Part shown: positions 1,755-47,434 of the stretch, piece after piece
Layout of the letters: the number at the start of each line of letters is the position of its first letter
Numbering within the stretch: the first letter of the stretch is position 1
Made by a program: the position numbers and the translations under genes
Assembly (NCBI GenBank): GCA_041393815.1
Contig: JAWKJK010000003.1
Coordinates: 153,562 to 217,561, forward strand
DNA length: 64,000 nucleotides
Origin: Candidatus Nanopelagicales bacterium
GTDB lineage: Bacteria; Actinomycetota; Actinomycetes; S36-B12; JAWKJK01
Direction of reading: 5' to 3'
Notes under the pieces: generated by a model
Databases searched by the model: none
Seen by the model: only the letters and a program-made list of their open reading frames with translations
Told to the model about the DNA's origin: nothing

Positions 1755-2345
1755 ATGGCCGCAACGAAGCAGAAGAACCGACTGAGGATCCGCGCCGCCT
1801 ATCGGGACAGCATCGTGCTGGTCCGTACCCCCACCGGAGACGTCTTCACCGCCCCGGAGGAGGTCGACGTCGAGGAGGTGGGCACCGGCCTGGCCGTCAC
1901 GTTCAGGATCAACGGGGAAGGTCGCTACGTCCCGGTCAAGGTGACGCTCACGGCCGACGACCCCGAGGTCGGCGTCGCGCAGTACATGCGCCAGCCGCTC
2001 AACCGAATCGCCACCCAGGTGATGAAGACCGTGGCGTCGCCGGTGCAGTTGCGGGAGAACGAGGACGGGACCACGACCGTCGTCCACAAGCTCACTGAGC
2101 GCATCCCCGAGCCGAGCGCGGAGCAGGTCCAGCGGCCACGCGCCGGGGGCCGTCAGCGACTCAGCGACGACTTCCTGCGCGACGTGGCGACGGTGTGGAC
2201 CCAGGCGCCACCGTCGAACCGGACACGCGAGGTGCAGCACTGGTACCGGCGCCAGACCGGCACCGAGGTGACCAGCGACCGGGTCGAGAACTGGCGGCGG
2301 AAGGCCGAGAAGGTGTTCCCCGAGATGTTCAAGGACGTCCGATGA
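1755..2345 (+). CDS. hypothetical protein of the integrative element
   Basis: 196-aa ORF. Its stop overlaps the integrase ATG (ATGA at 2342-2345). Confidence 0.5.
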   Translation: MAATKQKNRLRIRAAYRDSIVLVRTPTGDVFTAPEEVDVEEVGTGLAVTFRINGEGRYVPVKVTLTADDPEVGVAQYMRQPLNRIATQVMKTVASPVQLRENEDGTTTVVHKLTERIPEPSAEQVQRPRAGGRQRLSDDFLRDVATVWTQAPPSNRTREVQHWYRRQTGTEVTSDRVENWRRKAEKVFPEMFKDVR

Positions 2346-3535
2346 GAGGCAGCATCGTCACGCGGAAGGACGCGAAGGGGCGGGATCGCTACTTCGTCGT
2401 AATCGAGGAGCGGACCCACGACGGGAAGCGTCGGCGCCGCTGGCACTCCGACCCGGCCACCGGGTCCGGGTTCACCTCCAAGCGGGCCGCGGAGAACCAC
2501 GCGGCCACGCTGGTCACCTCCGTCGCCAGCGGGTCCTACGTCGAGCCGACGCGCGAGACCGTGGGGGACTGGCTGGACACCTGGCTCGCACTGGTGAAGC
2601 CGTCACTGCGGCCGTCGACCTGGGCGTCGTACGACAAGAACATCCGACTCCATGTCCGGCCCGCGCTCGGGACGGTCGAGCTGCGCCGACTCACCGCGGT
2701 CGACCTCGATCGGCTCTACGCCCACCTGCTCGAGCAGGGACGGACCGACGGCTCCGGGGGGCTGTCGGTGCGGACCGTCCGGTACGTCGCCACCATCGTC
2801 AAGCGGTCGCTGAAGGACGCGGTCCGCAAGGGGCTGATCCCGCGGAACCCGGCCGACGCCGCCGACCCGCCGAAGCCGTCAGGAGCCACCCACGGCGACG
2901 TTCAGGCGTGGGGCGCACGAGACCTCGCCACCTTCCTCGCGGCGACGCAGGAGCACGTCTACGGCCCGGTGTGGGCCTTCCTCGCAGCCACCGGCTGCCG
3001 GCGCGGGGAGGCGCTCGGCCTGCGGTGGTCGGACCTGCATCTCGGCACCGACAAGCGCACCCGCGCGTCCTTCATCCAGACCGTCCAGAAGATCAAGGGC
3101 GAGGTCGTCATCGGGTCGACGAAGACCGCCTCCTCGCGCCGGGTGGTCGTCCTCGACGACGCGACCGTGGCGATGCTCAAGCGGGTCCGGGTCGCCCAGG
3201 ACGGGGACCGTCTGAAGGTCGGCCCCGGCTGGCCGGAGTCGGGCCTCGTCTTCACCCACGGCGACGGTCGCGGGCTCCACCCGGAGACCATCAGCCGCGC
3301 GTTCCGGGAGAGCGTCGACAAGCTCGGCCTGCCGCCGATCCCGCTGCACGGGCTGCGCCACACCTGGGCGACGCTGGCGCTCCAGGCCGGGGTGCATCCG
3401 AAGGTGGTGCAGGAGCGGCTCGGCCACGCGAACGTGAGCATCACGCTGAACATCTACAGCCACGTCGCGCCCACGATGCACGGGGACGCGGCCGACACCG
3501 TGGCGGCGCTGGTGGCATCGGCGGGGAAGCGGTAG
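2342..3535 (+). CDS. tyrosine recombinase / phage-type integrase
   Basis: Start taken at the internal ATG (MRGSIVTRKDAKGRDRYF...). C-terminal catalytic region HGLRHTWATLALQAGVHPKVVQERLGHANVSITLNIYSHV carries the R..HxxR..Y signature. Confidence 0.9.
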   Translation: MRGSIVTRKDAKGRDRYFVVIEERTHDGKRRRRWHSDPATGSGFTSKRAAENHAATLVTSVASGSYVEPTRETVGDWLDTWLALVKPSLRPSTWASYDKNIRLHVRPALGTVELRRLTAVDLDRLYAHLLEQGRTDGSGGLSVRTVRYVATIVKRSLKDAVRKGLIPRNPADAADPPKPSGATHGDVQAWGARDLATFLAATQEHVYGPVWAFLAATGCRRGEALGLRWSDLHLGTDKRTRASFIQTVQKIKGEVVIGSTKTASSRRVVVLDDATVAMLKRVRVAQDGDRLKVGPGWPESGLVFTHGDGRGLHPETISRAFRESVDKLGLPPIPLHGLRHTWATLALQAGVHPKVVQERLGHANVSITLNIYSHVAPTMHGDAADTVAALVASAGKR

Positions 3536-3553
3536 ACGGACGGTAGATGAAGC

Positions 3554-3592
3554 GGCCCCCGGTCTGCGTTTTCGCAGGTCAGGGGCCGTTTT
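3554..3592 (+). terminator. intrinsic terminator after the integrase
   Basis: GGCCCC ... GGGGCC outer stem with inner CTGCG/CGCAG pairing, followed by GTTTT. Confidence 0.45.
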
Positions 3593-3593
3593 C

Positions 3594-3680
3594 TGGTGTC
3601 CGAGGGGGGACTTGAACCCCCATGCCCCTAAGGGCACTAGCACCTCAAGCTAGCGCGTCTGCCAATTCCGCCACCCGGAC
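3594..3680 (-). tRNA. tRNA-Leu (anticodon GAG), CCA encoded
   Basis: Reverse complement GTCCGGGTGGCGGAATTGGCAGACGCGCTAGCTTGAGGTGCTAGTGCCCTTAGGGGCATGGGGGTTCAAGTCCCCTCGGACACCA. 7-bp acceptor stem, anticodon stem CTAGC/GCTAG with loop TTGAGGT, long variable arm, GGTTCAAGTCC T-arm. Confidence 0.9.
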
Positions 3681-3809
3681 GAGGTGACCCGGCGCCTTGG
3701 GGGGCGCCGCGACCGGCAGAGGATAACAAGACCGGGGAGTGCGCCGCGAACCGCCGGGATCCCGGCCGGAGGGCTGCCGTACCCCGCCGACCCCGGGCAG
3801 GATGGTCCG

Positions 3810-5150
3810 GTGACCCAGATCGGAACCGATCCCCGCCTGGCCGAGCTTCCGGACGCGGAGGCCGAGGTCGTCTCCCTGTGCCGAGACCTCATCCGCATCG
3901 ACACCACCAACGACGGGACGCCGGACTCGGTGGGAGAGGCCGCGGCGGCGGAGTACGTCGAGCATCGGCTGCGCGAGGTGGGCTACGAGCCGGAGCGCTT
4001 CCAGACCACCGCCGGCAAGCGGCAGGGGGTCGTGCTGCGCATCCCGGGCACCGACCCCGACCGGGGTGCCCTGCTCCTGCACGGGCATCTCGACGTGGTC
4101 CCCGCGCGCCCCGACGACTGGACGGTCCACCCGTTCTCCGCGGAGGTCGAGGACGGCATGCTCTGGGGTCGCGGTGCCGTGGACATGAAGGACATGGACG
4201 CGATGATCCTGGCCACCGTTCGCTCCTGGGGGCGTACGGGCTACCGGCCCCCGCGCGACGTCGTGGTCCTCTTCCTGCCCGACGAGGAGGCCGGCGGCTA
4301 CCACGGCTCGCACTGGCTGGTGGACCACCGACGCGACATGTTCGAGGGCGTCACCGAGGCCGTCGGAGAGGTCGGGGGGTTCTCGCTCACCGTCCGCGAC
4401 GACCTGCGGTTGTACCTGATCCAGACCGCCGAGAAGGGCATCGCCTGGATGCGGCTGCGTGCCCTCGGCCGGGCCGGGCACGGGTCGATGCTCAACGACG
4501 AGAACGCGGTCACCCGGCTGTCCGAGGTCGTGGCGCGGATCGGCCACCACCGCTGGCCCGTGCACGTCACCCCCGCGGTGCGCGATCTGCTCAGCGAGCT
4601 GTCCGACGCGCTCGGCCTCGAGCTCGACGCCAAGGACATGGAGTCCACGCTGTCCCGCCTCGGCCCGTTGGCCCGGCTGATCGGGGCCACGCTGACCAAC
4701 ACGGCGAACCCGACGATGCTCGACGCCGGCTACAAGATCAACGTGATCCCGGGGGAGGCCGAGGCGCAGGTCGACGGCCGGTTCCTGCCGGGGTACGAGC
4801 ACGAGTTCTTCGCCACCATCGACGAGATGCTCGGTGACCACGTCGTGCGGGAGTTCGTCAACCACGACGTCGCGCTGGAGACGACGTTCGACGGGCCGAC
4901 CATCGACGCGATGGCCGCCGCACTCCGGGCAGAGGACCCCGGCGCCCGTCCGGTCCCGTACACGCTGTCCGGCGGCACGGACGCGAAGGCGTTCTCCCTG
5001 CTGGGGATCCGGGCGTACGGATTCGCGCCGCTGAAGCTGCCGCCCGACCTCGACTTCGGCGCCATGTTCCACGGCGTGGACGAGCGGGTCCCCCTGGACG
5101 CGCTCACCTTCGGCGTCCGGGTCCTGGACCGTTTCCTCCGCTCCTCCTGA
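3810..5150 (+). CDS. M20 family metallopeptidase (dipeptidase/desuccinylase-like)
   Basis: LLLHGHLDVVPA, GRGAVDMKD and FLPDEEAGG motifs. Start placed at in-frame GTG 3810 because the track start at 3684 overlaps the tRNA. Confidence 0.85.
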   Translation: MTQIGTDPRLAELPDAEAEVVSLCRDLIRIDTTNDGTPDSVGEAAAAEYVEHRLREVGYEPERFQTTAGKRQGVVLRIPGTDPDRGALLLHGHLDVVPARPDDWTVHPFSAEVEDGMLWGRGAVDMKDMDAMILATVRSWGRTGYRPPRDVVVLFLPDEEAGGYHGSHWLVDHRRDMFEGVTEAVGEVGGFSLTVRDDLRLYLIQTAEKGIAWMRLRALGRAGHGSMLNDENAVTRLSEVVARIGHHRWPVHVTPAVRDLLSELSDALGLELDAKDMESTLSRLGPLARLIGATLTNTANPTMLDAGYKINVIPGEAEAQVDGRFLPGYEHEFFATIDEMLGDHVVREFVNHDVALETTFDGPTIDAMAAALRAEDPGARPVPYTLSGGTDAKAFSLLGIRAYGFAPLKLPPDLDFGAMFHGVDERVPLDALTFGVRVLDRFLRSS

Positions 5151-5179
5151 CCGCGCAGCCCGCCCGGCCCCGTTGACTC

Positions 5180-5212
5180 GGGCACACGATCCGCTTAGCG
5201 GATCGTGTGCCC
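5180..5212. repeat. family-1 palindromic repeat, copy 1 (forward)
   Basis: GGGCACACGATCCGC-TTA-GCGGATCGTGTGCCC. Followed after 7 nt by GCGGCGTGTCGGG and after about 14 more nt by ACACGATCCGGGT. Confidence 0.9.
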
Positions 5213-5415
5213 ATCTCGCGCGGCGTGTCGGGCCCGGGAGGGGCAACACGATCCGGGTCTTGGTGCCCGTGTGGCGGGAGTGGCGCTGCCGGTCCGGCGG
5301 AGTGCCGGGGCCGCCCGGACGGCCCGACGTCGTACGGGGCCGCGTCCCACTCGTCTCACGCGTACCCACGGGTGGATCGTGTGACGGATCGCGACCGCGA
5401 CACTCCGCCCGACCT

Positions 5416-5448
5416 GGGCACACGATCCGCTAAGCGGATCGTGTGCCC
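5416..5448. repeat. family-1 palindromic repeat, copy 2 (reverse)
   Basis: GGGCACACGATCCGC-TAA-GCGGATCGTGTGCCC. Preceded on the + strand by GACACTCCGCCCGACCT and GGATCGTGTGAC, the mirror of the copy-1 tail. Confidence 0.9.
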
Positions 5449-5489
5449 GACAAGGCGGGGCAAGGCAAGGCGAGCGGGGCGGAGCGGGG

Positions 5490-5744
5490 TCAGGCGGTGC
5501 GGGTCACGCGGATCACGCGGCGCCGGAGCCAGACGCGGCGCCGGCCGTCGGGGTACAGCCGCAGCCGGGCCAGCTCCCACCGCCCGTACTCGGCGAACTC
5601 GGTGAGCACCGCGCGGGCCGCGTCCCGGGTGGTCCCGCGCGGCAGGGTCAACTCGCGGTACTCGTACGACGACGTCGCGCCCGACGGTCCGGGCCGGTGG
5701 CGGGCGGACGCCGGACCCGGCGTGACCCCGTCCGCTGCTCCCAT
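5490..5744 (-). CDS. DUF5703 family protein
   Basis: Last 84 aa of track ORF 5490..5888: YEYRELTLPRGTTRDAARAVLTEFAEYGRWELARLRLYPDGRRRVWLRRRVIR. Confidence 0.8.
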   Translation of the reverse strand: MGAADGVTPGPASARHRPGPSGATSSYEYRELTLPRGTTRDAARAVLTEFAEYGRWELARLRLYPDGRRRVWLRRRVIRVTRTA

Positions 5745-13443: not shown

Positions 13444-13536
13444 CGCGGATCCGGCAGCGCGCTTCTTGTTGGGGGACAGTGGATTTCTCGTGTCGATCTC
13501 TTGCGCTGGTGGCATTGTGGGTCTAGACTCGTACTG

Positions 13537-15208
13537 ATGTTCGAACAGTCGGTGGTACCCGCTCCGTCGGTGTCGCGCGCGGCGGATGCCGCGCTGCTGG
13601 CCGAGGCGGTCGCGGCGGGTCCGGGTGCGGTGGCGGTGGGGCTGCTGGAGCGGATCGACCCCTCGGTGTTGGACGAGCACGACCGGGTGTCGTTCATGAC
13701 CGCCTGGCAGGCAGCCGCCGCGTGGGCGACCGCGCGGTCGTACGCGGCGATGGTTCCGGTGGTCGGACCGCGGGAGCTGCCCAGCGCGGAGTCGACCCGC
13801 TGCCCGGAGGCGGTGTGCGAGGAGTCGGTGGTCGCCGAGGTCGCCGCGGCCTGCCGGTTGTCCACGTCCGCGGCGACGGATCGGGTGGTGACCGCGCGGT
13901 TCCTGGCCGGGCCTGGTGCCCCGGTCGCTGCGCTGCTGGGCGCCGGGGTGTGGTCGTTCTCGCATCTGCGGGTGGTGCAGTGCGAGACCGCCGGCCTCCC
14001 GGCTCGTCTGGCCGCCGCGGTCATCGCCGAGGTCGCCGCGGCGTCGATGCCCGGCGCGGACGGGACGCCGTCACGGCTGGACGGCGAGACCCCGGGCCGG
14101 CTGCGGCAGCGGGTCCGGCGCACCGCGCTGCGCCGGGACCCCGCCGCGGCCACGGCGCGGATCGAGTCCCGCCGCAGGGAGCGGTCGTGCCGCATCGGCG
14201 CGGAGGCGGACTTCCGGTCCCGGCTGACCGTCGACGGTCCGCATCCGATGATCCGGTGGGCGTTCGCCCAGTTCGACGCCTGGGCCCGGCACCGCCAGAC
14301 CCTGCTGAAGGGGGCCAGCCCCGCCGACCGCGACCAGATCCTGGGCCGGTGCACCTGCGGCACCCGCGCCACGATCGGCGCAGCCCGCAGCGGCGGGCGG
14401 CCCGAGGCCCGTGACGCCGGGGAGACCCGCGGCGCCGGCGAGGGCCGCCAGGAGGCGCATGACCCGGTGTGTCCGCAGCACGTGGACACCTCGCGGGAGG
14501 CGCTGCGCGCCGACGCCGTGATCGAGTCCGCAAGGCTGCTGGCCGCCTCCCTTCGCGAGCACGGTGGCCCCGAGCCCGATGCCGAACCCGGTGCCGAGCC
14601 GGCCGGCGGGCGGGCCGGTCCTGGTCTCAGGCCGTCGTCGTCGTGGACACGCCGACCCTGTTCGGGCTGGCCGACGAGCCCGGCTGGGTGCCCGGCTACG
14701 GCTGGGTCCCCGCCCCATCGCCCGGCAGCTGGCCGGCGACGCCGACAACTGGCGCCGGTTCCTCACCGACCACGGCCGCCTGATCGCCACCGGCGACAAC
14801 CGCTACCGGCCCAGCGACCGGCTCCGCGAGCTCGTGACCGCCCGGGACACCGTGTGCACCTTCCCCGGCTGCACCATCCCCTCCACCGCCACCGACCTGG
14901 ACCACGTGGCGAACTTCGACGGCGCGAACACCACCGCCGCCAACCTGCACCCCGCCTGCCGGCGGCACCACCGCATCAAGACCCACGGCACCTGGACGGC
15001 AGGCACCGACCCCGGCGGCACCGGGCGGATCCGCTGGACCAGCCCCACCGGCCACACCTACCTCCAACCCCCCCAACCGCTGTGGGACACCGGACCCCCC
15101 GGCCTCACGCGCGCCCCCGACCAGACACCCCGTGACCACCGGCCCGGCGACGAACCGCGCGCGGATCAGCCGGACAGCCCCTGGACCCTCCGGTACATCG
15201 CCGCCTGA
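13537..15208 (+). pseudogene. DUF222 / HNH endonuclease gene (REP13E12-like family) disrupted by two frameshifts
   Basis: The N-terminal DUF222-like part runs in the 13537 frame. QAVVVVDTPTLFGLADEPGWVPGYGWVPAP is in the 14469 frame. WRRFLTDHGRLIATGDNRYRPSDRLRELVTARDTVCTFPGCTIPSTATDLDHV...CRRHHRIKTH is in the 14564 frame. Confidence 0.75.
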
Positions 15209-15249: not shown

Positions 15250-16476
15250 ATGCTGTCCTGGCCGTCTGCCCCGGTGCCGATCCTCCCCGGCCGCGGGCTT
15301 CCGGTGCGGCTGTACGACACCGCGACGACCGAGATCCGCCCGACCGCCCCGGGGGCCACCGCGCGGATGTACGTCTGCGGCATCACCCCGTACGACGCCA
15401 CCCACATGGGGCACGCGGCCACGTACGTCACCTTCGACCTGCTCAACCGGGCGTGGCGGGACGCCGGCCACGAGGTCCACTACGTACAAAACGTGACCGA
15501 CGTCGACGACCCCCTGCTGGAGCGGGCTGTGGCCACGGGCCAGGACTGGCGGGTGCTCGCCGACCGGGAGACGGCGCTCTTCCGCGAGGACATGGCGGCG
15601 CTGCGGGTGCTCGCGCCGGACCAGTACATCGGCGCGGTGGAGTCGATCCCGTCCGTGGTCGCCTACACCCGGCGGCTGCAGGAGCGCGGTGCGGTGTACG
15701 AGGTCGACGGCGACCTCTACTTCGACGTGCACAGCGACCCGCGGTTCGGGTCGGTGGCCAACCTGCCGGTGGACGAGATGCGCGCGCTGTTCGCCGAGCG
15801 CGGGGGAGACCCCGACCGGCCCGGGAAACGGCACCCGCTGGACTGCCTGGTCTGGCAGACCGCCCGCCCGGACGAGCCGGCCTGGGACACCGACCTGGGG
15901 CACGGGCGCCCCGGCTGGCACATCGAGTGCGTCGCCATCGCCCTGGACCACCTGGGGATGACCTTCGACGTGCAGGGCGGTGGCCGGGACCTGGCGTTCC
16001 CGCACCACGAGATGGGCGCGTCGCAGGGGCAGGTGCTGGCGGCGGAGTGGCCGTACGCGCGGCACTACGTGCACACCGGGATGGTCGGCCTCGACGGCGA
16101 GAAGATGAGCAAGTCCCGCGGCAACCTGGTGTTCGTCTCGCGGTTGCGCGCGTCGGGGCATGATCCGTCGGCGATCCGGCTGGCCCTGCTCGGGCACCAC
16201 TACCGGCGTGACTGGGAGTGGCGGCACGACGACCTGGTAGCCGCGGAGGAGCGGCTGGGCCGCTGGCGGGCGGCGGTGTCCGCCCCGGCCGGGCCGGCGG
16301 CGGCCCCGGTGCTGGATCGGGTCCGCGAGTGCCTGGCCGACGACCTCGACGCCCCGGGGGCACTGGCCGCGGTGGACCGCTGGGCCGAGGGGGCCCGGCT
16401 GCGCCAAGGTTCGGACGTCGCGGCCCCCGCCCTGGTCCGCGACCTCGTGGACTCCCTCCTCGGCGTCGACCTCTGA
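15250..16476 (+). CDS. mshC: L-cysteine:1D-myo-inositol 2-amino-2-deoxy-alpha-D-glucopyranoside ligase (mycothiol synthesis)
   Basis: [30 protein letters not shown] and KMSKSRGN mark a class I CysRS-like enzyme without an anticodon-binding extension. Confidence 0.9.
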
Positions 16477-16491: not shown

Positions 16492-16553
16492 CGCGAGACA
16501 CCAGAACGGGCCTGGCATCCGGGTACGGATCGGGCCCCTTCTGGTGTCTCGCG
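16492..16553. terminator. long hairpin just after the mshC stop
   Basis: CGCGAGACACCAGAA, 32-nt loop, TTCTGGTGTCTCGCG: a perfect 15-bp stem. Confidence 0.4.
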
Positions 16554-16583
16554 AGGATCACCTCGTGACACGCCGCCCAACCT

Positions 16584-16616
16584 GGCCACACGATCCGCTA
16601 AGCGGATCGTGTGGCC
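16584..16616. repeat. family-1 palindromic repeat, copy 3 (reverse, solo)
   Basis: GGCCACACGATCCGC-TAA-GCGGATCGTGTGGCC, preceded by GACACGCCGCCCAACCT. Confidence 0.9.
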
Positions 16617-16638
16617 GAGTCTCCCGGGCGGCGGGGCG

Positions 16639-17673
16639 TCAGGACTTCTTCTCGTCGTGGCCGCCGAACTGCTTGCGCATCGCGGACATCACCTTGTCCG
16701 CGAACAGGTCGTTGCCCTGGGAGGCGAACCGCTCGTACAGGGCCGCGGTGAGCACCGGCGCCGGCACCCCCTCCTCGATCGCCGCGATCGAGGTCCAGCG
16801 GCCCTCGCCGGAGTCCGACACCCGGCCGGAGAACTCGGCCAGGTCGGGCGAGGCCACCAGCGCCTCCGCCGTCAGGTCCAGCAGCCACGAGCCGACCACC
16901 GACCCGCGACGCCAGACCTCGGCCACGGCAGGGATGTCCAACGTGTACTGGTAGAACTCCGGGTGCTCCAGCGGCGCGGTCTCCGCGTCCTGGTCCCGGG
17001 ACCGCGAGCCCTCGTCGGCGTTCTTGAGGATGTTCAGGCCCTCGGCGTAGGCGGCCATGAGCCCGTACTCGATGCCGTTGTGGACCATCTTCACGAAGTG
17101 GCCGGCCCCGCTCGGACCACAGTGCAGCCAGCCCTCCTCCGCCGGTGTCACGTCGCCGGACCGCCCGGGCGTGCGGGGCGCCGAGTCGTACCCCGGCGCG
17201 ATCGAGCGCCACAGCGGCGCGAGCCGGTCCACCGCCGTGTCGTGCCCGCCGATCATCAGGCAGTAGCCCCGGTCCAGGCCCCAGACCCCGCCGGACGTGC
17301 CGCAGTCGACGAAGTGAACCCCGCGCGGGTCCAGTGCCTGCGCGCGCCGGATGTCGTCGCGGTAGTACGAGTTGCCGCCGTCGATGAGCACGTCGTCGGC
17401 CTCGAGCAGCCCTCCCAGGGTCGTCACCACTTCCTCGGTGATGTCCCCGGCCGGCACCATGATCCAGGCGGCCCGCGGCTTCTCCAACTTGGCGACGAAG
17501 TCCTCGTACGAGGACGCGCCGACGGCGCCCTCCGCGACCAGCGCCTCCACGTTGGCGGGGTTCACGTCGTAGACGACGGCGCGGTGGCCGTCGCGCATGA
17601 TCCGCCGCACGATGTTGGCGCCCATCCGGCCCAGGCCCACCATTCCCAGCTGCATCGGCGTGTCGGTCGGCAC
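16639..17673 (-). CDS. gnd: 6-phosphogluconate dehydrogenase (decarboxylating), short form
   Basis: [18 protein letters not shown]...[24 protein letters not shown] 17673 has a GAGGAGGA SD; ATG 17655 is the alternative start. Confidence 0.85.
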
Positions 17674-20849: not shown

Positions 20850-20909
20850 CCGGCGACGGCCGGCAGGGGCCCGGTCTCTCCCGCGGCCCCGGCCCGTGCT
20901 TTCCAGCGC

Positions 20910-20965
20910 GAGTGGAGGGTTGTGGTGGAAGTCGATCGATCGACTTCCACCACAACCCTCCACTC
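20910..20965. repeat. perfect 56-bp palindrome (28-nt arms, no loop)
   Basis: GAGTGGAGGGTTGTGGTGGAAGTCGATC directly followed by its reverse complement. Lies between pgi and the DUF1707 gene. Confidence 0.9.
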
Positions 20966-21018
20966 GGCGACAACGCGCCACGCGGCGACGGGGTCGGGGG
21001 ACGCACTAGCCTGCAGGT

Positions 21019-26049: not shown

Positions 26050-29000
26050 ATGGCTGACCACCCCTCGCTCCTCGACGCCCTGCGCCAGCGCGTCGTCGTT
26101 GCCGACGGCGCGATGGGCACGATGCTGCAGGCCGCCGACCTCACCCTCGACGACTTCGAGGGGCACGAGGGCTGCAACGAGATCCTCAACGTCACCCGCC
26201 CCGACGTCGTCGCCGGCGTGCACGAGGCCTACCTCGCGGTCGGGGTCGACTGCGTCGAGACCAACACGTTCGGCGCCAACCTGGCCAACCTGGGCGAGTA
26301 CGGCATCTCCTCGCGCATCTTCGAACTGGCCGAGGCGGGTGCGCGGGTCGCCCACGAAGTCACCCGAGCCTGGTCCACCCCGGACCGGCCGCGCTGGGTG
26401 CTGGGGTCGGTCGGCCCGGGCACGAAGCTGCCCACGCTGGGCCACGTGACGTACGCCGAGCTCCGCGACGCCTACGAGCAGCAGGTCGCCGGCATGGTGT
26501 CTGGCGGGGTGGACGGCATCCTGATCGAGACGGCGCAGGACCTGCTGCAGGCCAAGGCCGCGATCATCGGGGCCCGGCGGGCGCTGGCCCGGGCCGGCGT
26601 GTCGCTGCCCGTGCTCGCCCAGGTGACGGTCGAGACCACCGGCACGATGCTGCTGGGATCGGAGATCGGCGCGGCGCTGACGGCGCTTGAGCCGCTGGGC
26701 ATCGACGTGATCGGCCTCAACTGCGCGACCGGTCCGACGGAGATGAGCGAGCACCTGCGCCACCTGTCACGGCACGGACGGATCTCGTTGTCCTGCATGC
26801 CCAATGCCGGTCTGCCCGTCCTCACCGCCGACGGCGCGCACTACCCGCTCACCCCGGACGAGCTGGCGGCCGCCCACGACACGTTCACCCGCGAGTACGG
26901 CCTCGGCCTGGTCGGCGGCTGCTGCGGCACCACGCCGGAGCACCTGCGCGCCGTGGTCGAGCGGGTCGGCGGGCGCGAGGTGGCGCCTCGGCGGCCGCGT
27001 CCGGAGCCGGGTGCGGCGTCGCTGTACCAGTCGGTCCCGTTCCGCCAGGACACGGCGTACCTGTCGATCGGCGAGAGGACCAACGCCAACGGCTCCAAGG
27101 CGTTCCGCGAGGCCATGCTGGCTGGGCGGTGGGACGACTGCGTGGAGATCGCGCGCGACCAGATCCGCGACGGGGCCCATCTGCTGGACCTGTGCGTGGA
27201 CTACGTCGGGCGCGACGGTGTCGCCGACATGCGCGAGATCGCCGGGCGGCTGGCGACCGCGTCGACGCTGCCGCTGGTGCTGGACTCCACCGAGCCCGAG
27301 GTGCTGCAAGCCGGCCTCGAGATGCTCGGCGGCCGACCGGTCATCAACTCGGTCAACTACGAGGACGGAGACGGCCCCGGGTCCCGCATCTCGCGGATCA
27401 TGCCGCTGGTCGTCGAACACGGCGCCGCCGTCGTCGCCCTCACCATCGACGAGGAGGGGCAGGCGCGCACGGCGGAGTGGAAGGTGCGGGTCGCCGACCG
27501 GCTCATCAGGGACCTGCGGGACCGCTGGGGGATGCGGGTCGAGGACGTCATCGTCGACTGCCTGACGTTCCCGATCGCGACCGGACAGGAGGAGACCCGC
27601 CGGGACGCGATCGAGACCCTCGAGGCCATCCGCGAGGTCAAGCGGCTGTACCCGCAGGTGCAGACGACACTGGGCCTGTCGAACGTGTCGTTCGGGCTAA
27701 ACCCGGCCGCGCGCCAGGTGCTCAACTCGGTGTTCCTGCACGAGGCCGTGCAGGCAGGTCTGGACTCCGCGATCGTGCATGCGTCGAAGATCCTGCCGAT
27801 GTCGCGCATCCCGGATGAGCAGCGGCAGGTGGCGCTCGACCTGGTCTACGACCGTCGTCGCTACGACGAGTCCGGCGACGTGGCCTACGACCCGCTGCAG
27901 CGGTTCCTGGAGCTGTTCGAGGGCGTCGAGACCACGTCGCTGCGGCAGAGCAAGGCCCAGGAGCTGGCCGCGCTGCCGCTGTTCGAGCGGCTGGAGCGCC
28001 GGATCATCGACGGGGAGCGGCAGGGGCTGGAGGCCGACCTCGACGCGGCGTTGGCCGAGCGGCCCGCGCTGGAGATCGTCAACGGGACGCTGCTGGCCGG
28101 CATGAAGGTCGTCGGCGACCTGTTCGGCGCGGGTGAGATGCAGCTGCCGTTCGTGCTGCAGAGCGCCGAGGTGATGAAGGCGGCGGTCGCCCACCTCGAG
28201 CCGCACATGGAGCGCACCGACGAGTCGGGCAAGGGCACCATCGTCCTGGCCACGGTCAAGGGCGACGTGCACGACATCGGCAAGAACCTGGTCGACATCA
28301 TCCTGAGCAACAACGGCTACACGGTCGTCAACATCGGCATCAAGCAGCCGGTCAGCGCGATCCTCGAGGCCGCGGAGAGTAGCTCCGCCGACGCCATCGG
28401 CATGTCCGGGCTGCTGGTCAAGAGCACCGTGGTGATGAAGGAGAACCTCGAGGAGATGAACGCCCGCGGCGTCGCTGCGCGCTGGCCGGTGCTCCTCGGC
28501 GGCGCCGCGCTCACCCGGGCCTACGTCGAGCAGGACCTGGCCGCGATGTACGAGGGCGACGTGCGCTACGCCCGCGACGCGTTCGAGGGCCTTCGGCTGA
28601 TGGACGCGGTGATGGCGGTCAAGCGCGGCGAGCCGGGAGCGGCGCTGCCGGAGCGCCGGGAGCGCCGGGTCCGGCCGGGCGCGGGCCGCGGGCCGGTGAC
28701 CACTCCGCTCGACGAGTTGCCGGCGCGCTCCGACGTCGCCGTGGACGTGCCGGTCCCCGTACCCCCGTTCTGGGGCTCCCGCGTGGTCAAGGGACTCAAG
28801 CTCGCCGACTACGTGCGCTACCTGGACGAGAGGGCCACGTTCCTGGGTCAGTGGGGGCTGAAGTCCGCACGCGGCGACGGGCCGTCGTACGACGAGCTGG
28901 TCGAGACCGAGGGTCGGCCGCGGCTGCGGTACTGGCTGGACCGGGTGCAGACCGAGGCGATCCTCGAGCCGGCTGTCGTCTACGGGTACTTCCCCTGCTA

Positions 29001-29559
29001 CTCCGAGGGCGACGACCTGGTCGTGCTGTGGCACGAGGGCTCGCGGGCGGGGGAGGAGCGGGCCCGGTTCACCTTCCCGCGGCAGCGCCGTGGCCGGCAC
29101 CTGTGCCTGGCGGACTTCTTCCGGCCGAAGGAGTCCGGGCAGACCGACGTGGTCGCGTTCCACGTGGTCACCATGGGCAACGCGGTCTCGGAGGCGACGG
29201 CGAAGCTGTTCGAGTCCGACTCCTACCGGGACTACCTGGAGCTGCACGGGCTGTCGGTCCAGCTGACCGAGGCGCTGGCGGAGTACTGGCACGCGCGGGT
29301 CCGCTCGGAGCTGGGGCTGGACGCCGACGACGACCCCGACATGGAGAAGCTCATCGGCAAGCAGGGCTACCGGGGGTCGCGCTACTCCTTCGGCTACCCC
29401 GCCTGCCCGGACGTGGAGCAGCAGGCGCTCCTGGTGGACCTGCTGGACCCTGGGCGGATCGGGGTGGAGTTGTCCGAGGAGTTCCAGCTGCACCCGGAGC
29501 AGTCGACCAGCGCCCTGATCGTCCACCACCCCGAGGCCAAGTACTTCAACGCTACGTAG
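26050..29559 (+). CDS. metH: cobalamin-dependent methionine synthase
   Basis: 1169 aa with Hcy, pterin, B12 (GDVHDIGKN) and AdoMet reactivation domains all readable. Confidence 0.95.
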   Translation: MADHPSLLDALRQRVVVADGAMGTMLQAADLTLDDFEGHEGCNEILNVTRPDVVAGVHEAYLAVGVDCVETNTFGANLANLGEYGISSRIFELAEAGARVAHEVTRAWSTPDRPRWVLGSVGPGTKLPTLGHVTYAELRDAYEQQVAGMVSGGVDGILIETAQDLLQAKAAIIGARRALARAGVSLPVLAQVTVETTGTMLLGSEIGAALTALEPLGIDVIGLNCATGPTEMSEHLRHLSRHGRISLSCMPNAGLPVLTADGAHYPLTPDELAAAHDTFTREYGLGLVGGCCGTTPEHLRAVVERVGGREVAPRRPRPEPGAASLYQSVPFRQDTAYLSIGERTNANGSKAFREAMLAGRWDDCVEIARDQIRDGAHLLDLCVDYVGRDGVADMREIAGRLATASTLPLVLDSTEPEVLQAGLEMLGGRPVINSVNYEDGDGPGSRISRIMPLVVEHGAAVVALTIDEEGQARTAEWKVRVADRLIRDLRDRWGMRVEDVIVDCLTFPIATGQEETRRDAIETLEAIREVKRLYPQVQTTLGLSNVSFGLNPAARQVLNSVFLHEAVQAGLDSAIVHASKILPMSRIPDEQRQVALDLVYDRRRYDESGDVAYDPLQRFLELFEGVETTSLRQSKAQELAALPLFERLERRIIDGERQGLEADLDAALAERPALEIVNGTLLAGMKVVGDLFGAGEMQLPFVLQSAEVMKAAVAHLEPHMERTDESGKGTIVLATVKGDVHDIGKNLVDIILSNNGYTVVNIGIKQPVSAILEAAESSSADAIGMSGLLVKSTVVMKENLEEMNARGVAARWPVLLGGAALTRAYVEQDLAAMYEGDVRYARDAFEGLRLMDAVMAVKRGEPGAALPERRERRVRPGAGRGPVTTPLDELPARSDVAVDVPVPVPPFWGSRVVKGLKLADYVRYLDERATFLGQWGLKSARGDGPSYDELVETEGRPRLRYWLDRVQTEAILEPAVVYGYFPCYSEGDDLVVLWHEGSRAGEERARFTFPRQRRGRHLCLADFFRPKESGQTDVVAFHVVTMGNAVSEATAKLFESDSYRDYLELHGLSVQLTEALAEYWHARVRSELGLDADDDPDMEKLIGKQGYRGSRYSFGYPACPDVEQQALLVDLLDPGRIGVELSEEFQLHPEQSTSALIVHHPEAKYFNAT

Positions 29560-29630: not shown

Positions 29631-30043
29631 ATGCGGCCAGTCACTCTCGTCCCGATCGCCCTGACCGTCCTGGTGTGCGCGGCGTGCGGCGGAACACCCT
29701 CGTCGCAGCCGGCGAGCGCGCAGGCATCCCTGCCGGCGGGTTCGTCGGGTTCCCCGACAACGGAGCATCCGACGTGCAGGTGAATCTGGACCAGGCCAAG
29801 TACGAGATGGACGTGCTGGTGGCCAAGGCCCCGGAGTGCGCCCCGAAGGCCGTGCAGGCGCTCGAGACGCTGGCGGGTGCGGTTGACGAGCTGCTCGTCA
29901 CGTTCCAGCTCGGTGAGAACCCCGCGGTCGTGGCGGCAGACAAGGCGGCGTTGAACGAGGTGCGCGGCCGGGGTATCGACGCGTGGAAGATCATGAAGAT
30001 CAACCCGGTCGGCTGGGAGGGGATCTTCGCGAACGCGCGGTAG
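29631..30043 (+). pseudogene. possible frameshifted lipoprotein gene
   Basis: ATG 29631 encodes MRPVTLVPIALTVLVCAACGGTPSSQPASAQ... and stops at about 29771. The body (ASDVQVNLDQAKYEM...IFANAR) continues in another frame. An in-frame GTG at 29774 is the alternative start for a short cytoplasmic protein. Confidence 0.35.
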
Positions 30044-30085
30044 TTCCGGTCCGGCACGTGACCGGTGCCCACGGTACGCAGAAGC

Positions 30086-30119
30086 GCGCAGTTGATCTTC
30101 CGCGGAAGATCAACTGCGC
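30086..30119. repeat. perfect 34-bp palindrome (family 4, copy 1)
   Basis: GCGCAGTTGATCTTCCG followed by CGGAAGATCAACTGCGC. Confidence 0.9.
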
Positions 30120-30213
30120 TCCCGGGCATGAACTCGGGCCCTTCGAGGCTGCCCTCATGAGGGGGGCCGCGGATACCATGTCGAGGTCTTCGCCGGTAGG
30201 GGGGAGCACGGCC

Positions 30214-31649: not shown

Positions 31650-31935
31650 CCTGCTACTGGACGGCGGGCAGGTCGTGCTGTGTGGCACGAGGGCTCGCGG
31701 GCGGGGCAGGAACGGGCCCGGTCACCTTCCCGCCGCAGCGTCGGGGGCAGGCACCTGTGCCTGGCGGACTTCTTCCGGCCGAAGGAGTCCGGGCAGACCA
31801 ACGTGGTCGCGTTCCACGTGGTCACCATGGGCAACCCGGTCTCGGAGGCGACGGCGAAGCTGTTCGAGTCCGACTCGTACCGGGACTACCTGGAGCTGCA
31901 CGGGCTGTCGGTGCAGCTGACCGAGGCGCTGGCGG
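31650..31935 (+). pseudogene. degenerate duplicate of an internal metH fragment (matches 28994-29281)
   Basis: Direct nucleotide alignment. The 5' third has a 2-nt insertion, a 1-nt deletion and clustered substitutions. The last ~190 nt differ at only 4 positions by eye. Translation: WHEGSRAGQERAR..HLCLADFFRPKESGQTNVVAFHVVTMGNPVSEATAKLFESDSYRDYLELHGLSVQLTEALA. Confidence 0.85.
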
Positions 31936-31984
31936 TTCGCGAACGCGCGGTAGACCCGGGCCGGCTGCCGGCTGCTCGCGCATA

Positions 31985-32013
31985 CAGTTGATCTTCCGCG
32001 GAAGAACAACTTG
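31985..32013. repeat. degenerate copy of the family-4 palindrome
   Basis: CAGTTGATCTTCCGCGGAAGAACAACTTG. Preceded at 31936-31953 by TTCGCGAACGCGCGGTAG, which is identical to 30026-30043. Confidence 0.8.
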
Positions 32014-32017
32014 TCCC

Positions 32018-32065
32018 TTGTGGTGCCGGTTGCGCGCGCTGTAGCGCGCGCAACCGGCACCACAA
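32018..32065. repeat. 22-bp-stem hairpin
   Basis: TTGTGGTGCCGGTTGCGCGCGC-TGTA-GCGCGCGCAACCGGCACCACAA. Confidence 0.85.
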
Positions 32066-32097
32066 AGGGGGTTGAATCAGTGGGTGGGAGGTGCGCG

Positions 32098-37497: not shown

Positions 37498-37550
37498 GGT
37501 CCGGGAGCGTACGGGGGCCCTCCGACACGCCGCCGCATCGCCGTTCCGCG

Positions 37551-37607
37551 AGTGCTCGCTCGTGGGGGTTTCAGGACCGTCCCGAAACCCCCACGAGAGA
37601 GCACTCG
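37551..37607. repeat. family-2 palindromic repeat, copy A
   Basis: GAGTGCTCGCTCGTGGGGGTTTCAGGACCGTCCCGAAACCCCCACGAGAGAGCACTC, followed by a G-run tract (GGGGAGGG...GGGTGGGCGGGG). Confidence 0.9.
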
Positions 37608-37688
37608 ACGGGGAGGGTCGTGCGGGTGGGCGGGGTCGAGCGGCGCGGCGCCCGCGCTCCGGCCGGACGCGGGGGGACACTGGCGCCG

Positions 37689-39608: not shown

Positions 39609-39642
39609 CCCGCCCGCCGCCGAGCGCCTCTCCGCGTTCATC

Positions 39643-39696
39643 GCTCGGTCGTGGGGGTTTCGGGACCGTCCTGAAACCCCCACGAGCGAGCACTCG
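39643..39696. repeat. family-2 palindromic repeat, copy B
   Basis: GCTCGGTCGTGGGGGTTTCGGGACCGTCCTGAAACCCCCACGAGCGAGCACTCG, followed by GGGGTGGGGAGG. Confidence 0.9.
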
Positions 39697-39748
39697 CTGG
39701 GGTGGGGAGGCTGGCGAGGGGGTCGGCGGGCGGCGGTAGGTTTCCCGC

Positions 39749-40883: not shown

Positions 40884-42542
40884 GTGCCGTACGAGGACGA
40901 CGCCCCGCGCCTGCGCGCGATCGAGGACCGGCTGGCCGAGGTCCAGGACGAGCTGGCCGCCGCCAAGTCGCAGAACGTCCGGCTCGCGGCGACGCTGCGC
41001 GAGGCGCGCGAGCAGATCATCACCCTCAAGGCCGAGGTCGACCGGCTGGCCGAGCCGCCGAGCGGGTACGGCGTCTACCTCGAGACCCACGACGACGACA
41101 CCGTCGACGTCTACACGGCCGGGCGCAAGATGCGCGTCACGGTGAGCCCCGGGGTCGACGCCAGCGAGCTGCGGCCGGGCCAGGAAGTCATGCTCAACGA
41201 GGCGCTCAACGTCGTGGGTGCGATGGAGTACGAGCGGCACGGGCAGATCGTGATGTTCAAGGAGCTGCTCGAGGACGGCTCGCGCGCCCTGGTGCTCGGC
41301 CACACCGACGAGGAGCGGGTGGTGCCGCTGGCGCAGCCGCTGCGCGGCACCGTGCTGCGTGCCGGCGACTCCCTGCTGATGGAGCCGCGGTCGGGCTACG
41401 TGCTGGAGAAGATCCCGAAGGCCGAGGTCGAGGAGCTCGTGCTGGAGGAGGTCCCTGACATCGACTACGCCGACATCGGCGGCCTGGCCGGCCAGATCGA
41501 GCAGATCCGCGACGCCGTCGAGCTGCCGTTCCTGCACCCCGACCTGTTCGCCGAGCACAAGCTCGCCCCGCCCAAGGGGATCCTGCTGTACGGCCCGCCC
41601 GGCTGCGGCAAGACGCTCATCGCCAAGGCGGTCGCCAACTCGCTGGCCAAGAAGGTCGCCGAGCGCGAGGGTCGCGAGGCCGGACGGTCGTACTTCCTCA
41701 ACATCAAGGGTCCCGAGCTGCTGAACAAGTACGTGGGCGAGACCGAGCGGCACATCCGGCTGGTATTCCAGCGGGCCCGGGAGAAGGCGTCCGAGGGCAT
41801 GCCGGTCATCGTCTTCTTCGACGAGATGGACTCGCTGTTCCGCACCCGCGGCTCGGGCGTCTCCAGCGACGTGGAGAACACGATCGTGCCGCAGCTGCTC
41901 AGCGAGATCGACGGCGTGGAGAGCCTGGAGAACGTCATCGTCATCGGGGCGTCCAACCGCGAGGACATGATCGACCCGGCGATCCTGCGTCCGGGCCGGC
42001 TCGACGTGAAGATCAAGATCGAGCGGCCGGATGCGGAGGCCGCGCGCGACATCTTCTCGAAGTACCTCACCGCCGACCTGCCGCTGCACGCGGACGACCT
42101 GGCTGAGCACGATGGGTCGCCGGACACCGCGTGCGCGGCGATGATCCAGCGCGCCGTGGAGCGGATGTACAGCGAGATCGAGGAGAACCGGTTCCTGGAG
42201 GTCACCTACGCCGACGGGGACAAGGAGGTCCTGTACTTCAAGGACTTCAACTCCGGCGCGATGATCGAGAACATCGTCGCGCGGGCGAAGAAGATGGCCA
42301 TCAAGGACCTCTTGGACCACGGCCAGCGCGGCATCCGGGTGCAGCACCTGCTGACGGCGTGCGTGGACGAGTTCCGCGAGAACGAGGACCTGCCCAACAC
42401 GACCAACCCGGACGACTGGGCGCGGATCTCGGGCAAGAAGGGCGAGCGGATCGTGTTCATCCGCACCCTTGTCCAGGGCAAGCAGGGCACCGAGGCCGGC
42501 CGCTCCATCGACACGGTGGCCAACACCGGCCAGTACCTGTAG
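40884..42542 (+). CDS. arc: proteasome-associated AAA ATPase ARC/Mpa
   Basis: N-terminal coiled coil, OB domains, GPPGCGKT Walker A, and a C-terminal ...TGQYL tail. GTG 40884 is preceded by GGGAGG. Confidence 0.95.
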
Positions 42543-42557: not shown

Positions 42558-42590
42558 GGGCACACGATCCGCTTTGCGGATCGTGTTGCA
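42558..42590. repeat. family-1 palindromic repeat, copy 4 (forward)
   Basis: GGGCACACGATCCGC-TTT-GCGGATCGTGTTGCA (one arm mismatch), then GCGGCGTGTCGGGG and TCACACGATCCGGGT. Confidence 0.9.
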
Positions 42591-42692
42591 TCGGGGTGCG
42601 GCGTGTCGGGGCAGGAGGCGGTCACACGATCCGGGTGATGGTGGTGCTGCGCCCCACGGGGGCACAGGGAGTTCCTGAGGCGGGTGAGGCGG

Positions 42693-44171
42693 CTACGGCC
42701 TGGCGGGGAGCTGGACGGTCGCGTGCGTCCCGGTCTCCCCGTCCGAGTCCAGGGTGACGGTCCCGCCGTTGGCCTCGACCAGCGCGCGCACCACGGACAG
42801 GCCAAGCCCGGAGCCGGGCACCTCGTCCGCGCGCGGTCCGCGCCAGAAGCGATCGAACACGTGCGGCAGGTCCTCGGGCAGGATGCCGGGTCCGGTGTCG
42901 GCCACGACGACGCGGGCCACGTCCGCAGCGGTGCCTCCGAGCTCCACGCGCACTGAGACCTCGTCGCCCGGGCGGCAGAACCGCGCGGCGTTGGACAGCA
43001 GGTTGCCCACCACCTGGTGCAGCTGGTCGCCGTCGGCGACGACGTGGATGCCGTCCTGCACCTGGGTATGAACCGTCAGACCCGCCGCGGCCAGGGCCGG
43101 TTCGTGCGCGGCCACGGCCGAGCGCACCAGGGCGGCGAGGTCCACGTCGGTGCGCGGACCGCGTGGGGTGGGGTCCTCCGCGGCGGCGAGCCGGGCCAGG
43201 TCGTCGACCACCCGCCCGAGTCTGAGCGCCTGGTCGTGCAGGCCGGCGAGGACCTGCGGGTCCGGCGGGACGTAGCCGTCGCGCAGCTCCTCCAGGCCGG
43301 CTTGGAGCACCGCCAGCGGGGTACGCACCTCGTGCGCGACGTCCGCGGCCATCTGCCGCCGCTGCGACTCTGCCAGTGCGACGGCGTCGGCGGCGTCGTT
43401 GAAGGCGGCAGCAACCTCCGCCACCTCGTCGGGACCGGCCTCCTGCGCCCGCGCCGTGCGGTCGCCGGCACCGAACGCGCGGGCGGTCCCCGCGAGCTCG
43501 CCGAGCGGCCGGGTGAGCCGCCGCGTCACCCACCAGCTCGCGAGAATGGCGACGCCGAGGGCGACCACGGCCGCCACCGCGATCCAGGTCCACGCCACCG
43601 ACCGGCCAGACCCGGCAGCCGGCGTGCCGAACCCCAGTCGTACGGTGCCCACCTGCTGGCCCTCGACGACCACGGGCGCGACGACCGCGCCGGACCCCGC
43701 GGACACGACCGCCCCTCCGCCCGGGCCCGGTCCGGAGCCCTGGCCGCTCGCCGGGTTGCCGCCGTCGGGGTTGCCGCCACCCGCCTGGCCGTGACCGTCC
43801 GTCCCCGTCCCGACGATGACGCCGTCCGCGTCCCGTACCGACAGCCCCGCGCCCGCCGCGGACGCGACCGCGGTCGCGTCGCTGAGGTCGGCACCCTCCC
43901 AGCCACCTGCGCGCGTGTACGCCTGCGCGGCCAGGTCGGCGACGGTCACCGCCACCGCCTCCCGCTCCTCCGTGCGCAGGGCGGACAGCCCGAGGCCGGA
44001 GCCGATCAGGGCGGAGACTGTGAGCACCGCGACGGCGACCAGCGAGACCACGGTGAAGGCGAGCAGCAGCCGACCGCCGAGCGACCCCCGCGCCCCGGAG
44101 CGCCGCGACCGCCGTCCCCCGGGGCGCGCCTCAGCGGTCACGGGGGAGCCCCAGCCGGTAGCCGACGCCAA
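42693..44171 (-). CDS. sensor histidine kinase (2 TM, HAMP, HisKA, HATPase_c)
   Basis: MAADVAHEVRTPL H-box, LLSNAARF N-box, DTGPGI and GSGLGLS motifs. GTG 44141 is an alternative start. Confidence 0.85.
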   Translation of the reverse strand: MASATGWGSPVTAEARPGGRRSRRSGARGSLGGRLLLAFTVVSLVAVAVLTVSALIGSGLGLSALRTEEREAVAVTVADLAAQAYTRAGGWEGADLSDATAVASAAGAGLSVRDADGVIVGTGTDGHGQAGGGNPDGGNPASGQGSGPGPGGGAVVSAGSGAVVAPVVVEGQQVGTVRLGFGTPAAGSGRSVAWTWIAVAAVVALGVAILASWWVTRRLTRPLGELAGTARAFGAGDRTARAQEAGPDEVAEVAAAFNDAADAVALAESQRRQMAADVAHEVRTPLAVLQAGLEELRDGYVPPDPQVLAGLHDQALRLGRVVDDLARLAAAEDPTPRGPRTDVDLAALVRSAVAAHEPALAAAGLTVHTQVQDGIHVVADGDQLHQVVGNLLSNAARFCRPGDEVSVRVELGGTAADVARVVVADTGPGILPEDLPHVFDRFWRGPRADEVPGSGLGLSVVRALVEANGGTVTLDSDGETGTHATVQLPARP

Positions 44172-44814: not shown

Positions 44815-44862
44815 GGGCCCATCCTGACGCGTCCCAGCCCGCGTGGCGGGCTGGGGAGGCAC

Positions 44863-44884
44863 CTCCACACGATCTCCACACGGA
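44863..44884. promoter_or_regulatory. candidate response-regulator operator: 11-bp direct repeat in the divergent RR / DUF2202 promoter region
   Basis: CTCCACACGAT followed by CTCCACACGGA, one helical-turn spacing. Confidence 0.3.
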
Positions 44885-44994
44885 CCGCACGACCCCTGCA
44901 GACCGGCCTCCGATGCTGCAGGTGTTCGCCCCCCAGACGGCGACGAAGACCCGGGCCGGAGCCCCGCGCGCTGGCCCCCGACGAAGGAGAGACC

Positions 44995-45705: not shown

Positions 45706-45792
45706 CACCCACGTACGACGGCACCACCCGCCCCACGCGTCACCGGGTGCGGGTGGTGTTGCGTCTTCCGGACGCGACACGCCGCCCCACCT

Positions 45793-45825
45793 GGGCACAC
45801 GATCCGCAAAGCGGATCGTGTGCCC
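45793..45825. repeat. family-1 palindromic repeat, copy 5 (reverse)
   Basis: GGGCACACGATCCGC-AAA-GCGGATCGTGTGCCC, preceded by GACACGCCGCCCCACCT. Confidence 0.9.
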
Positions 45826-47387: not shown

Positions 47388-47434
47388 GCACGGGCCGGCC
47401 GGCCCCGAACACCGGGAACTGCGAGGAGGGCACG

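Follow-up and report, generated by a model that had tools for sequence, protein, structure and literature searches.

Five repeat copies and their gene context

Near the left end of the 64-kb stretch of DNA analysed here, which is called the window throughout and has a G+C content of 73%, the genes for an M20 peptidase and a DUF5703 protein converge on an intergenic region in which two copies of a palindromic repeat face each other. Three more copies are found, one between an mshC-like ligase gene and a 6PGD-like gene, and one at either end of a block of genes that separates arc from dop. The M20, DUF5703 and arc genes were identified by Pfam, and the neighbouring genes were assigned by Pfam and homology. 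The copies are designated A (5180), B (5416), C (16584), D (42558) and E (45793). The first-pass annotation had placed five copies at these positions, two of them facing each other across about 200 bp between convergent genes, and this description holds. A pattern search tolerating up to three mismatches found five sites (5183, 5419, 16587, 42561 and 45796) and none across 100 dinucleotide-preserving shuffles of the window; the palindromes of A and B are separated by 203 nt, and Pfam confirms both genes. Direct reading of positions 5000-5650 gave the palindrome GGGCACACGATCCGC-NNN-GCGGATCGTGTGCCC at 5180-5212 and 5416-5448, and a profile built from the five units recovers these five only, within the window. 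The features are as follows.

3684-5150, + strand: M20 peptidase gene (Pfam), stop codon 5148-5150
5151-5265, + strand: copy A, subtype 1 (nhmmer E 2.8e-25)
5151-5179, + strand: C-rich outer flank of A, beginning directly 3' of the M20 stop codon
5180-5212, + strand: palindrome of A, loop TTA, followed by the spacer 5213-5219
5220-5229, + strand: block GCGGCGTGTC of A, followed by 16 variable nt
5246-5254, + strand: third arm ACACGATCC of A, followed by the short distal tail GGGTCTTGGTG
5266-5337, no strand: central spacer of the A/B doublet, unique (the rest of the window gives chance-level short matches only)
5338-5489, - strand: copy B, subtype 2, inverted relative to A (aligned unit and profile match)
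5374-5382, - strand: third arm of B
5399-5408, - strand: block GCGGAGTGTC of B
5416-5448, - strand: palindrome of B
5449-5489, - strand: G-rich outer flank of B, reaching the DUF5703 stop codon
5490-5492, - strand: stop codon of the DUF5703 gene, which ends at 5490
16474-16476: stop codon of the mshC-like ligase gene
16494-16553, no strand: separate long hairpin GCGAGACACCAGAA...TTCTGGTGTCTCGC, adjoining the tail of C and folding cleanly
16567-16638, - strand: copy C, solo, subtype 2 (aligned unit and profile match)
16567-16576, - strand: block GCGGCGTGTC of C
16584-16616, - strand: palindrome of C, with a compensated G/C swap
16617-16638, - strand: outer flank of C, reaching the stop codon of the 6PGD-like gene
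16639-16641, - strand: stop codon of the 6PGD-like gene
42540-42542: stop codon of arc
42558-42643, + strand: copy D, subtype 1, with an imperfect palindrome (42558-42590, loop TTT) and an 8-nt spacer
42598-42607, + strand: block GCGGCGTGTC of D
42624-42632, + strand: third arm ACACGATCC of D, with the distal tail GGGTGATGGTG
42644-45723, no strand: DNA interior to D and E, absent at the arc-dop junction in 68 relatives
42693-44171, - strand: histidine kinase gene between D and E, stop codon 42693-42695
about 44131-44830, - strand: OmpR-type response regulator gene between D and E
about 44995-45705, + strand: gene for a secreted DUF2202 protein between D and E, stop codon 45703-45705
45724-45825, - strand: copy E, subtype 2, similar to B over 129 nt (74%)
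45751-45759, - strand: degenerate third arm ACACCACCC of E
45776-45785, - strand: block GCGGCGTGTC of E
45793-45825, - strand: palindrome of E, loop TTT in unit orientation
45867: ATG of dop

All five copies are intergenic. For four of them the hairpin is the first feature past a stop codon, 15-41 nt downstream: 29 nt after the M20 gene (A), 41 nt after DUF5703 (B), 22 nt after the 6PGD-like gene (C) and 15 nt after arc (D). The tails of A and B point to the inverted partner. On the tail side of C the mshC-like gene stops 107 nt before the palindrome, D turns its tail towards the histidine kinase gene, and E towards the DUF2202 gene, whose stop codon lies 87 nt before the palindrome. On its other side, E is 41 nt from the dop start codon and ends 28 nt before a -10-like TACGCT that is also present in one relative (L127). 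The roughly 20 nt preceding the dop start codon, TACGCT included, match this relative and resemble another (L126), from which it appears that E sits upstream of native promoter-proximal sequence. Promoter and terminator scans gave neither a sigma-70-like promoter nor a hairpin with a U-tract at the four loci. The bases 3' of the stems are G/C-rich, where a canonical intrinsic terminator has its U-tract at once. Mycobacterial RNA polymerase requires a U-tract at intrinsic terminators (PMC3993855), and none follows the stems, so that they do not qualify as classical intrinsic terminators.

Just upstream of the M20 gene, a tyrosine integrase gene of the phage type (2195-3535, + strand) adjoins a tRNA gene (3597-3680, - strand). 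The scanned ORFs to the left of the integrase (3-884, 881-1360 and 1755-2345) have no Pfam match, and the region 2195-3680 is probably the edge of an integrated element.

Anatomy of the repeat unit

When the five copies are oriented and aligned, they show the same order: the palindrome, a spacer, the block GCGG[C/A]GTGTC, 16 variable nucleotides (about 14 in the first-pass annotation) and the third arm ACACGATCC. The block corresponds to the right arm of the palindrome minus AT, and ACACGATCC is the left arm. The initial description, a perfect palindrome of 33 nt in every copy followed after 7 nt by the block and, in all copies but C, by a third arm, is right in outline and needs correction in D and C. 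The exact GGGCAC..GTGCCC palindrome is confined to A, B and E. Copy C reads GGCCAC..GTGGCC, so that both arms are changed and the palindrome is still perfect, but in D the right arm is degenerate (..GTGTTGCA); the RNA hairpin is predicted at -21.6 kcal/mol for D versus -30.6 kcal/mol for the other copies, with their 15-bp stem. The spacer is 7 nt long in A, B, C and E, but 8 nt in D. As to the third arm, it is exact in A, B and D and degenerate in E (ACACCACCC); C, which had been thought to have no clear third arm, does carry one (CCCGATCC), preceded by a spacer that is longer by 15 nt. The loop is asymmetric, TTA for the first three copies and TTT for D and E, and tracks the orientation of the tail in all five copies, which indicates that palindrome and tail were inherited as a single unit.

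Conservation is concentrated in the blocks. Mean pairwise identity is 0.93 for the palindrome, 0.96 for GCGGCGTGTC and 0.82 for the third arm, and falls to 0.40-0.51 for the spacers, the outer flank and the distal tail. The core of about 53 nt, made of the block, the spacer and the palindrome, is 92-95% identical among copies. Since the tails are just 40-50% identical beyond the conserved blocks, the copies are old, and the perfect palindromes may have been kept by selection and not by recent transposition. The two subtypes recognised at first reading, one of each in either inverted pair, are borne out by the spacers (ATC.. for A and D, AGGT.GG for the other three) and by the distal tails, which are alike within A and D and within B and E. 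Both pairs, A/B and D/E, thus combine one copy of subtype 1 with one of subtype 2, tails inward.

The repeat occurs here in three forms: the solo copy C, the tails-inward inverted doublet A/B of about 340 nt, and the inverted pair D/E, whose members are 3.27 kb apart. The arms of the doublet (5144-5290 and 5338-5484, 147 nt) are 71% complementary, the core of about 53 nt reaching 92%, and as single-stranded DNA the whole A-B region would fold into one long hairpin (-132 kcal/mol, z -9.75). A-B has the form of a small element with terminal inverted repeats, and no credible ORF lies inside it. The whole unit of copy C also folds strongly (z = -9.05). The tip CGATCCGTACCCGGATG of the separate hairpin at 16494-16553 resembles the tip of the family palindrome, and this hairpin may be part of the insertion that brought copy C.

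The four related arms had led to the proposal that the element forms two consecutive hairpins, or alternative pairings. This was not supported. The GCGG[C/A]GTGTC block and the third arm are able to pair over 7 bp with a 2-nt bulge, but the minimum-energy folds of the five units share the first hairpin only, the tail folding differently from copy to copy. Covariation over the two helices in the five-copy alignment amounts to one two-sided change, in the first helix of C, and 208 of 500 shuffles equal it; moreover, B and E break the central pair of the second helix. A structured second hairpin, like an alternative pairing, in the tail was set aside on these grounds. Blocks held at fixed spacing fit recognition of sequence motifs better than a conserved second structure, five copies being too few to decide.

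Strong hairpins are not limited to this family. The window holds nine perfect hairpins with a stem of at least 13 bp, whereas 0.95 Mb of DNA from relatives gives a mean of 1.08 per 64 kb. Of the nine, four are members of the family described here and the remainder come from other palindrome families, so that the genome seems generally rich in such elements. Another hairpin repeat family, ..CTCGTGGGGGTTTC-N-GAAACCCCCACGAG.., is represented at 37548-37625 and 39620-39697, 2 kb apart and 85-89% alike; behind each copy come a G-rich stretch and the beginning of a + strand ORF (37620 and 39749). Very long perfect or near-perfect palindromes are found at 20909-20966, 32015-32068, 30084-30121 and 31985-32022, with stems of 27, 25 and 17 bp, and several of the long palindromes of the window contain GATC. 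A second copy of the 3' end of the methionine synthase gene (26050-29559) lies 2.65 kb downstream (29092-29281 versus 31746-31935, 97% identity), leaving a fragment ORF (31680-31991) with a Met_synt_B12 match; a further duplicated stretch pairs 30026-30055 with 31936-31965. To judge from the sequence, this looks like a segmental duplication or an insertion associated with CAGTTGATCTTCCGCGGAAGATCAACTG palindromes.

Junctions in relatives and the search for further copies

Looking for sites without the element in relatives, as had been suggested with the first description, proved informative: the convergent junctions there measure 7-25 nt, and most arc→dop junctions are shorter than 310 nt. Between the stop codons of the M20 and DUF5703 genes there are 25 nt in one relative (L208) and 12 nt in another (L209), against 339 nt in the window, a gap that A, B and the central spacer fill entirely. 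The mshC-6PGD junction is 7 nt in L002 and 162 nt in the window. From arc to dop, L125 and L127 have 64 and 103 nt, respectively, and the window 3324 nt, bounded by D and E. Of the 68 relatives with both genes on one locus, 56 show an arc→dop gap of 26-310 nt and the other 12 one of 0.6-2.8 kb, and none of the 68 has the kinase, the regulator or DUF2202 between the two genes. Because the same junctions are tight in relatives, the repeat units are insertions; the outer G-rich and C-rich flanks must also belong to the inserted DNA, the native M20-DUF5703 gap being so short. By this comparison of gene junctions, lineage-specific insertions account for the repeats and for most of the surrounding DNA.

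How closely these junctions approximate the ancestral state depends on the distance of the relatives. Both the M20 protein and Dop have a 100% identical counterpart, MEZ5116662.1 and MEZ5116699.1 respectively, in a MAG labelled Candidatus Nanopelagicales bacterium, on a contig of 589,524 bp; the next-best proteins are at 79% (M20) and 84% (Dop) identity, which marks an isolated lineage. The compared relatives being only 76-84% identical in protein, their junctions are not true pre-insertion alleles. The nearest of them (L126, Dop 84%) has a DUF2202 homologue of 51% identity just upstream of dop, without any repeat. Target-site duplications were seen neither around A-B (..GTTGACTC / GACAAGG..) nor around D-E (..CCCGCGA / GAGGGGT..), the boundaries being uncertain by a few bases in both cases.

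Unrelated genes occupy the M20 site in two other relatives, which makes it a variable spot. DUF222 ORFs occur at non-homologous places in the window (13501-15135), in L001 (11919-13499) and in L125 (12027-13793); the L125 copy has a weak HNH match as well, and one DUF222 ORF lies at the M20 junction of L001. Their distribution suggests that DUF222 is an independently mobile gene family in this group. Further along the proteasome cluster, dop and a small ORF in the position of pup (51901-52167) are about 4.5 kb apart (47388-51900), with mostly minus-strand ORFs between them, compared with 97-429 nt in L125, L126 and L127. This second insertion has no ends of the family described here. Tandem 27-nt and 9-nt repeats (GGCTTCGGGGCCGGTGC.. 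and CCGGAGGAC..) at 51111-51342 are probably low-complexity coding repeats inside the inserted dop-pup segment.

Outside the window, the exact core is absent from 185,579 species genomes, from JGI metagenome contigs and from viral contigs. With a relaxed pattern, the species genomes, metagenomes and viral contigs returned single unrelated hairpins in many phyla, as chance predicts. No match to the repeat was found in plasmids and phages by blastn, and a profile of the unit gave no match in 0.9 Mb of DNA from around dop and M20 in relatives. Rfam at gathering thresholds reported one tRNA only for the whole window, and at permissive settings, over 5100-5520, microRNA-hairpin noise only, with 8-27 bits against thresholds of 59-108. 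The family, which the first-pass annotation did not recognise, has no match in Rfam or in any sequence collection searched. It is a real family, not recorded before. A CRISPR or tandem-repeat reading was dismissed in view of the mixed orientations and of a spacing that varies irregularly from 236 to 25,974 nt.

The genes that might move such units were also sought. Among 20 ORFs of the window scanned with Pfam there is no transposase and no Y1 transposase (RAYT), and the sole recombinase in the scanned ORFs is the tRNA-linked tyrosine integrase at 2195-3535. The Pfam scan likewise gave no transposase, TnpA or TnpB gene between D and E. The interior of the A-B doublet, compared with the rest of the window as a possible deletion derivative of D...E, has no match there.

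Origin of the repeats and comparison with known repeat kinds

The explanation that we favour, and hold to be probable with some reserve, is that the family is a small, non-autonomous mobile palindromic repeat, private to this lineage and of the general kind of REP/BIME elements and foldback MITEs. Units of about 90-150 nt, each a 33-nt hairpin with an oriented tail that repeats the hairpin arm twice at fixed spacing, would have been acquired by insertion into gene junctions. A putative enzyme, encoded at another place in the genome, would spread them; its target would be the single-stranded form of the hairpin or else the array of 9-bp arm motifs in the duplex. Against mobility stands the fact that there are five copies examined and none in other collections, hence no independent sign of spread. 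Once inserted, the G+C-rich stem of 15 bp could act as a stable 3' hairpin for neighbouring mRNAs, and the hairpins of the family probably supply stable mRNA 3' ends. REPs are known to protect RNA 3' ends. The likelier effect on RNA would accordingly be protection against 3' exonucleases and not termination, which is doubtful in the absence of a U-tract (PMC3993855).

As the main alternative, one can suppose that subtypes 1 and 2 are the left and right ends of a single type of transposon able to carry cargo, D...E being a 3.27-kb copy that brought the two-component system and DUF2202 into arc-dop, A-B a cargo-less foldback form and C a solo end. The two pairs do share the same layout, a subtype 1 copy at the left, a subtype 2 copy at the right and tails that point inward; the 56 nt left outside D and E (15 + 41) come near the native 64-nt spacer of L125, and the kinase, regulator and DUF2202 genes are found between arc and dop in none of the 68 relatives. 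The recurrence of arm motifs near an end, in both orientations, is reminiscent of complex transposon ends with their multiple binding sites. Several facts weigh on the other side. DUF2202 stands directly upstream of dop in L126 without the repeat, so the cargo may predate the repeats; D...E has no target-site duplication and no transposase inside; and D and E occupy the two intergenic regions of the block that lack a divergent promoter, where independent insertions would be expected too. There are, besides, two pairs only, and the probability of such a pattern by chance is about 1/8 to 1/64. We regard this reading as rather unlikely. Its fuller form, an undescribed actinobacterial DNA transposon whose ends each consist of a perfect 33-bp palindrome and two further 9-bp copies of the arm at fixed spacing, that makes no target-site duplication and that exists as a cargo form (D...E) splitting arc-dop and as a 340-bp foldback (A-B), is unlikely.

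It is more doubtful that the repeats are host signals acting in cis, either an operator with several sites for a dimeric DNA-binding protein or a module under selection that stabilises or terminates mRNA 3' ends, recruited beside the protein-turnover genes M20 peptidase, arc and dop. What speaks for a signal is that the blocks are strongly conserved while the spacers vary in sequence and are fixed in length, that one two-sided change preserves a palindrome, that three of the five copies adjoin proteolysis genes, that E immediately precedes the retained core promoter region of dop, and that four hairpins of five come 15-41 nt past a stop codon. Yet four of the five sites are at the 3' ends of genes and not at promoters, the same genes do without the repeat in relatives, and it is repeats, not operators, that are similar along about 100 nt, fall into two subtypes and form an inverted doublet. 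Among the operator motifs known to us (CRP, NrdR, ClgR, CIRCE, HAIR and LexA), none fits the element. For a terminator module, the U-tracts needed by mycobacterial RNA polymerase are missing (PMC3993855). We consider it quite improbable that host signals of this sort account for the family. The idea that the arrangement is partly an artefact, produced by chimeric joins or inversions at a repeated palindrome, deserves mention in the case of a metagenome-assembled genome, misassembly being a classic hazard at repeats and palindromes. However, D shares no exact match longer than about 29 nt with the reverse complement of E, which is below the usual final k-mers of assemblers, the gene order flanking every copy agrees with that of relatives, and a single collapse cannot yield five copies with distinct tails, all of which makes an artefact highly improbable.

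If the units are mobile palindromic repeats, as we favour, they resemble the REP, BIME and REPIN sequences of Proteobacteria, which RAYT (Y1) transposases mobilise. These too are short, extragenic and lineage-specific palindromes found at the 3' ends of genes or between convergent genes, as singletons and as inverted doublets, often of unlike subtypes, the doublet being foldable as one hairpin (PMC3733652, PMC3116915). Described REPs are palindromes of 20-40 nt with a GTAG or CGTC tag, linked to RAYT transposases, and inverted doublets, often of unlike partners 20-100 bp apart, are common in the described families; Actinobacteria are not mentioned in the survey (PMC3733652). REP elements typically number tens to hundreds per genome, and their cognate RAYT gene usually has repeats on either side; the 64 kb of the window contain five copies of the repeat described here. 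The present family, in contrast, has neither GTAG nor CGTC at either foot of the stem, the outer foot being preceded by CTC, GTC or CGA and the inner foot followed by ATC or AGG. Its palindrome is perfect, 33 nt long and provided with a conserved 50-90-nt tail that repeats its arm; the partners A and B are 203 nt apart and not 20-100 nt; the host is an actinobacterium, and no RAYT was found among the 20 ORFs scanned. The assignment to MITE-like or REP/BIME-type repeats made at first reading is thus supported for the class, the copies being intergenic and inserted at tight junctions, but does not extend to membership of a named family.

Similarity to foldback MITEs such as Correia/CREE, ERIC, RUP and Nezha lies in the non-coding intergenic character, the length of 270-340 bp, the long terminal inverted repeats, the fold into one hairpin and the absence from the same sites in relatives. 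In the present family, by contrast, no target-site duplication is seen, the window contains no parent insertion sequence that shares its ends, and the inverted ends are unusually long (75-147 nt, 71-92%), each with its own perfect palindrome. With the ends of IS200/IS605 and of palindrome-associated transposable elements it shares hairpins near both ends and the lack of a target-site duplication, but in IS200/IS605 the hairpins of the two ends point the same way on one strand and terminal inverted repeats are lacking, whereas the ends seen here are inverted, and the ORFs tested include neither a TnpA nor a TnpB gene. The hairpin-only ('I-shaped') 3'-end structures of high-G+C Actinobacteria resemble it in their strong G+C-rich stem-loop, placed soon after stop codons and lacking a U-tract; those structures are individual and unrepeated, whereas the sequence and tail described here recur at unrelated loci.

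If the family is limited to these five old copies, it is a minor curiosity. Its insertions interrupt the normally compact Pup-proteasome gene cluster between arc and dop, strong hairpins at several mRNA ends may alter the expression of protein-turnover genes, and the ordered array of arm motifs offers a concrete recognition site to seek for the putative mobilising enzyme. The known range of REP-like and MITE-like repeats, described to our knowledge almost entirely from cyanobacteria, Firmicutes and Proteobacteria, would be widened by a well-defined family from an uncultivated actinobacterium of high G+C content.
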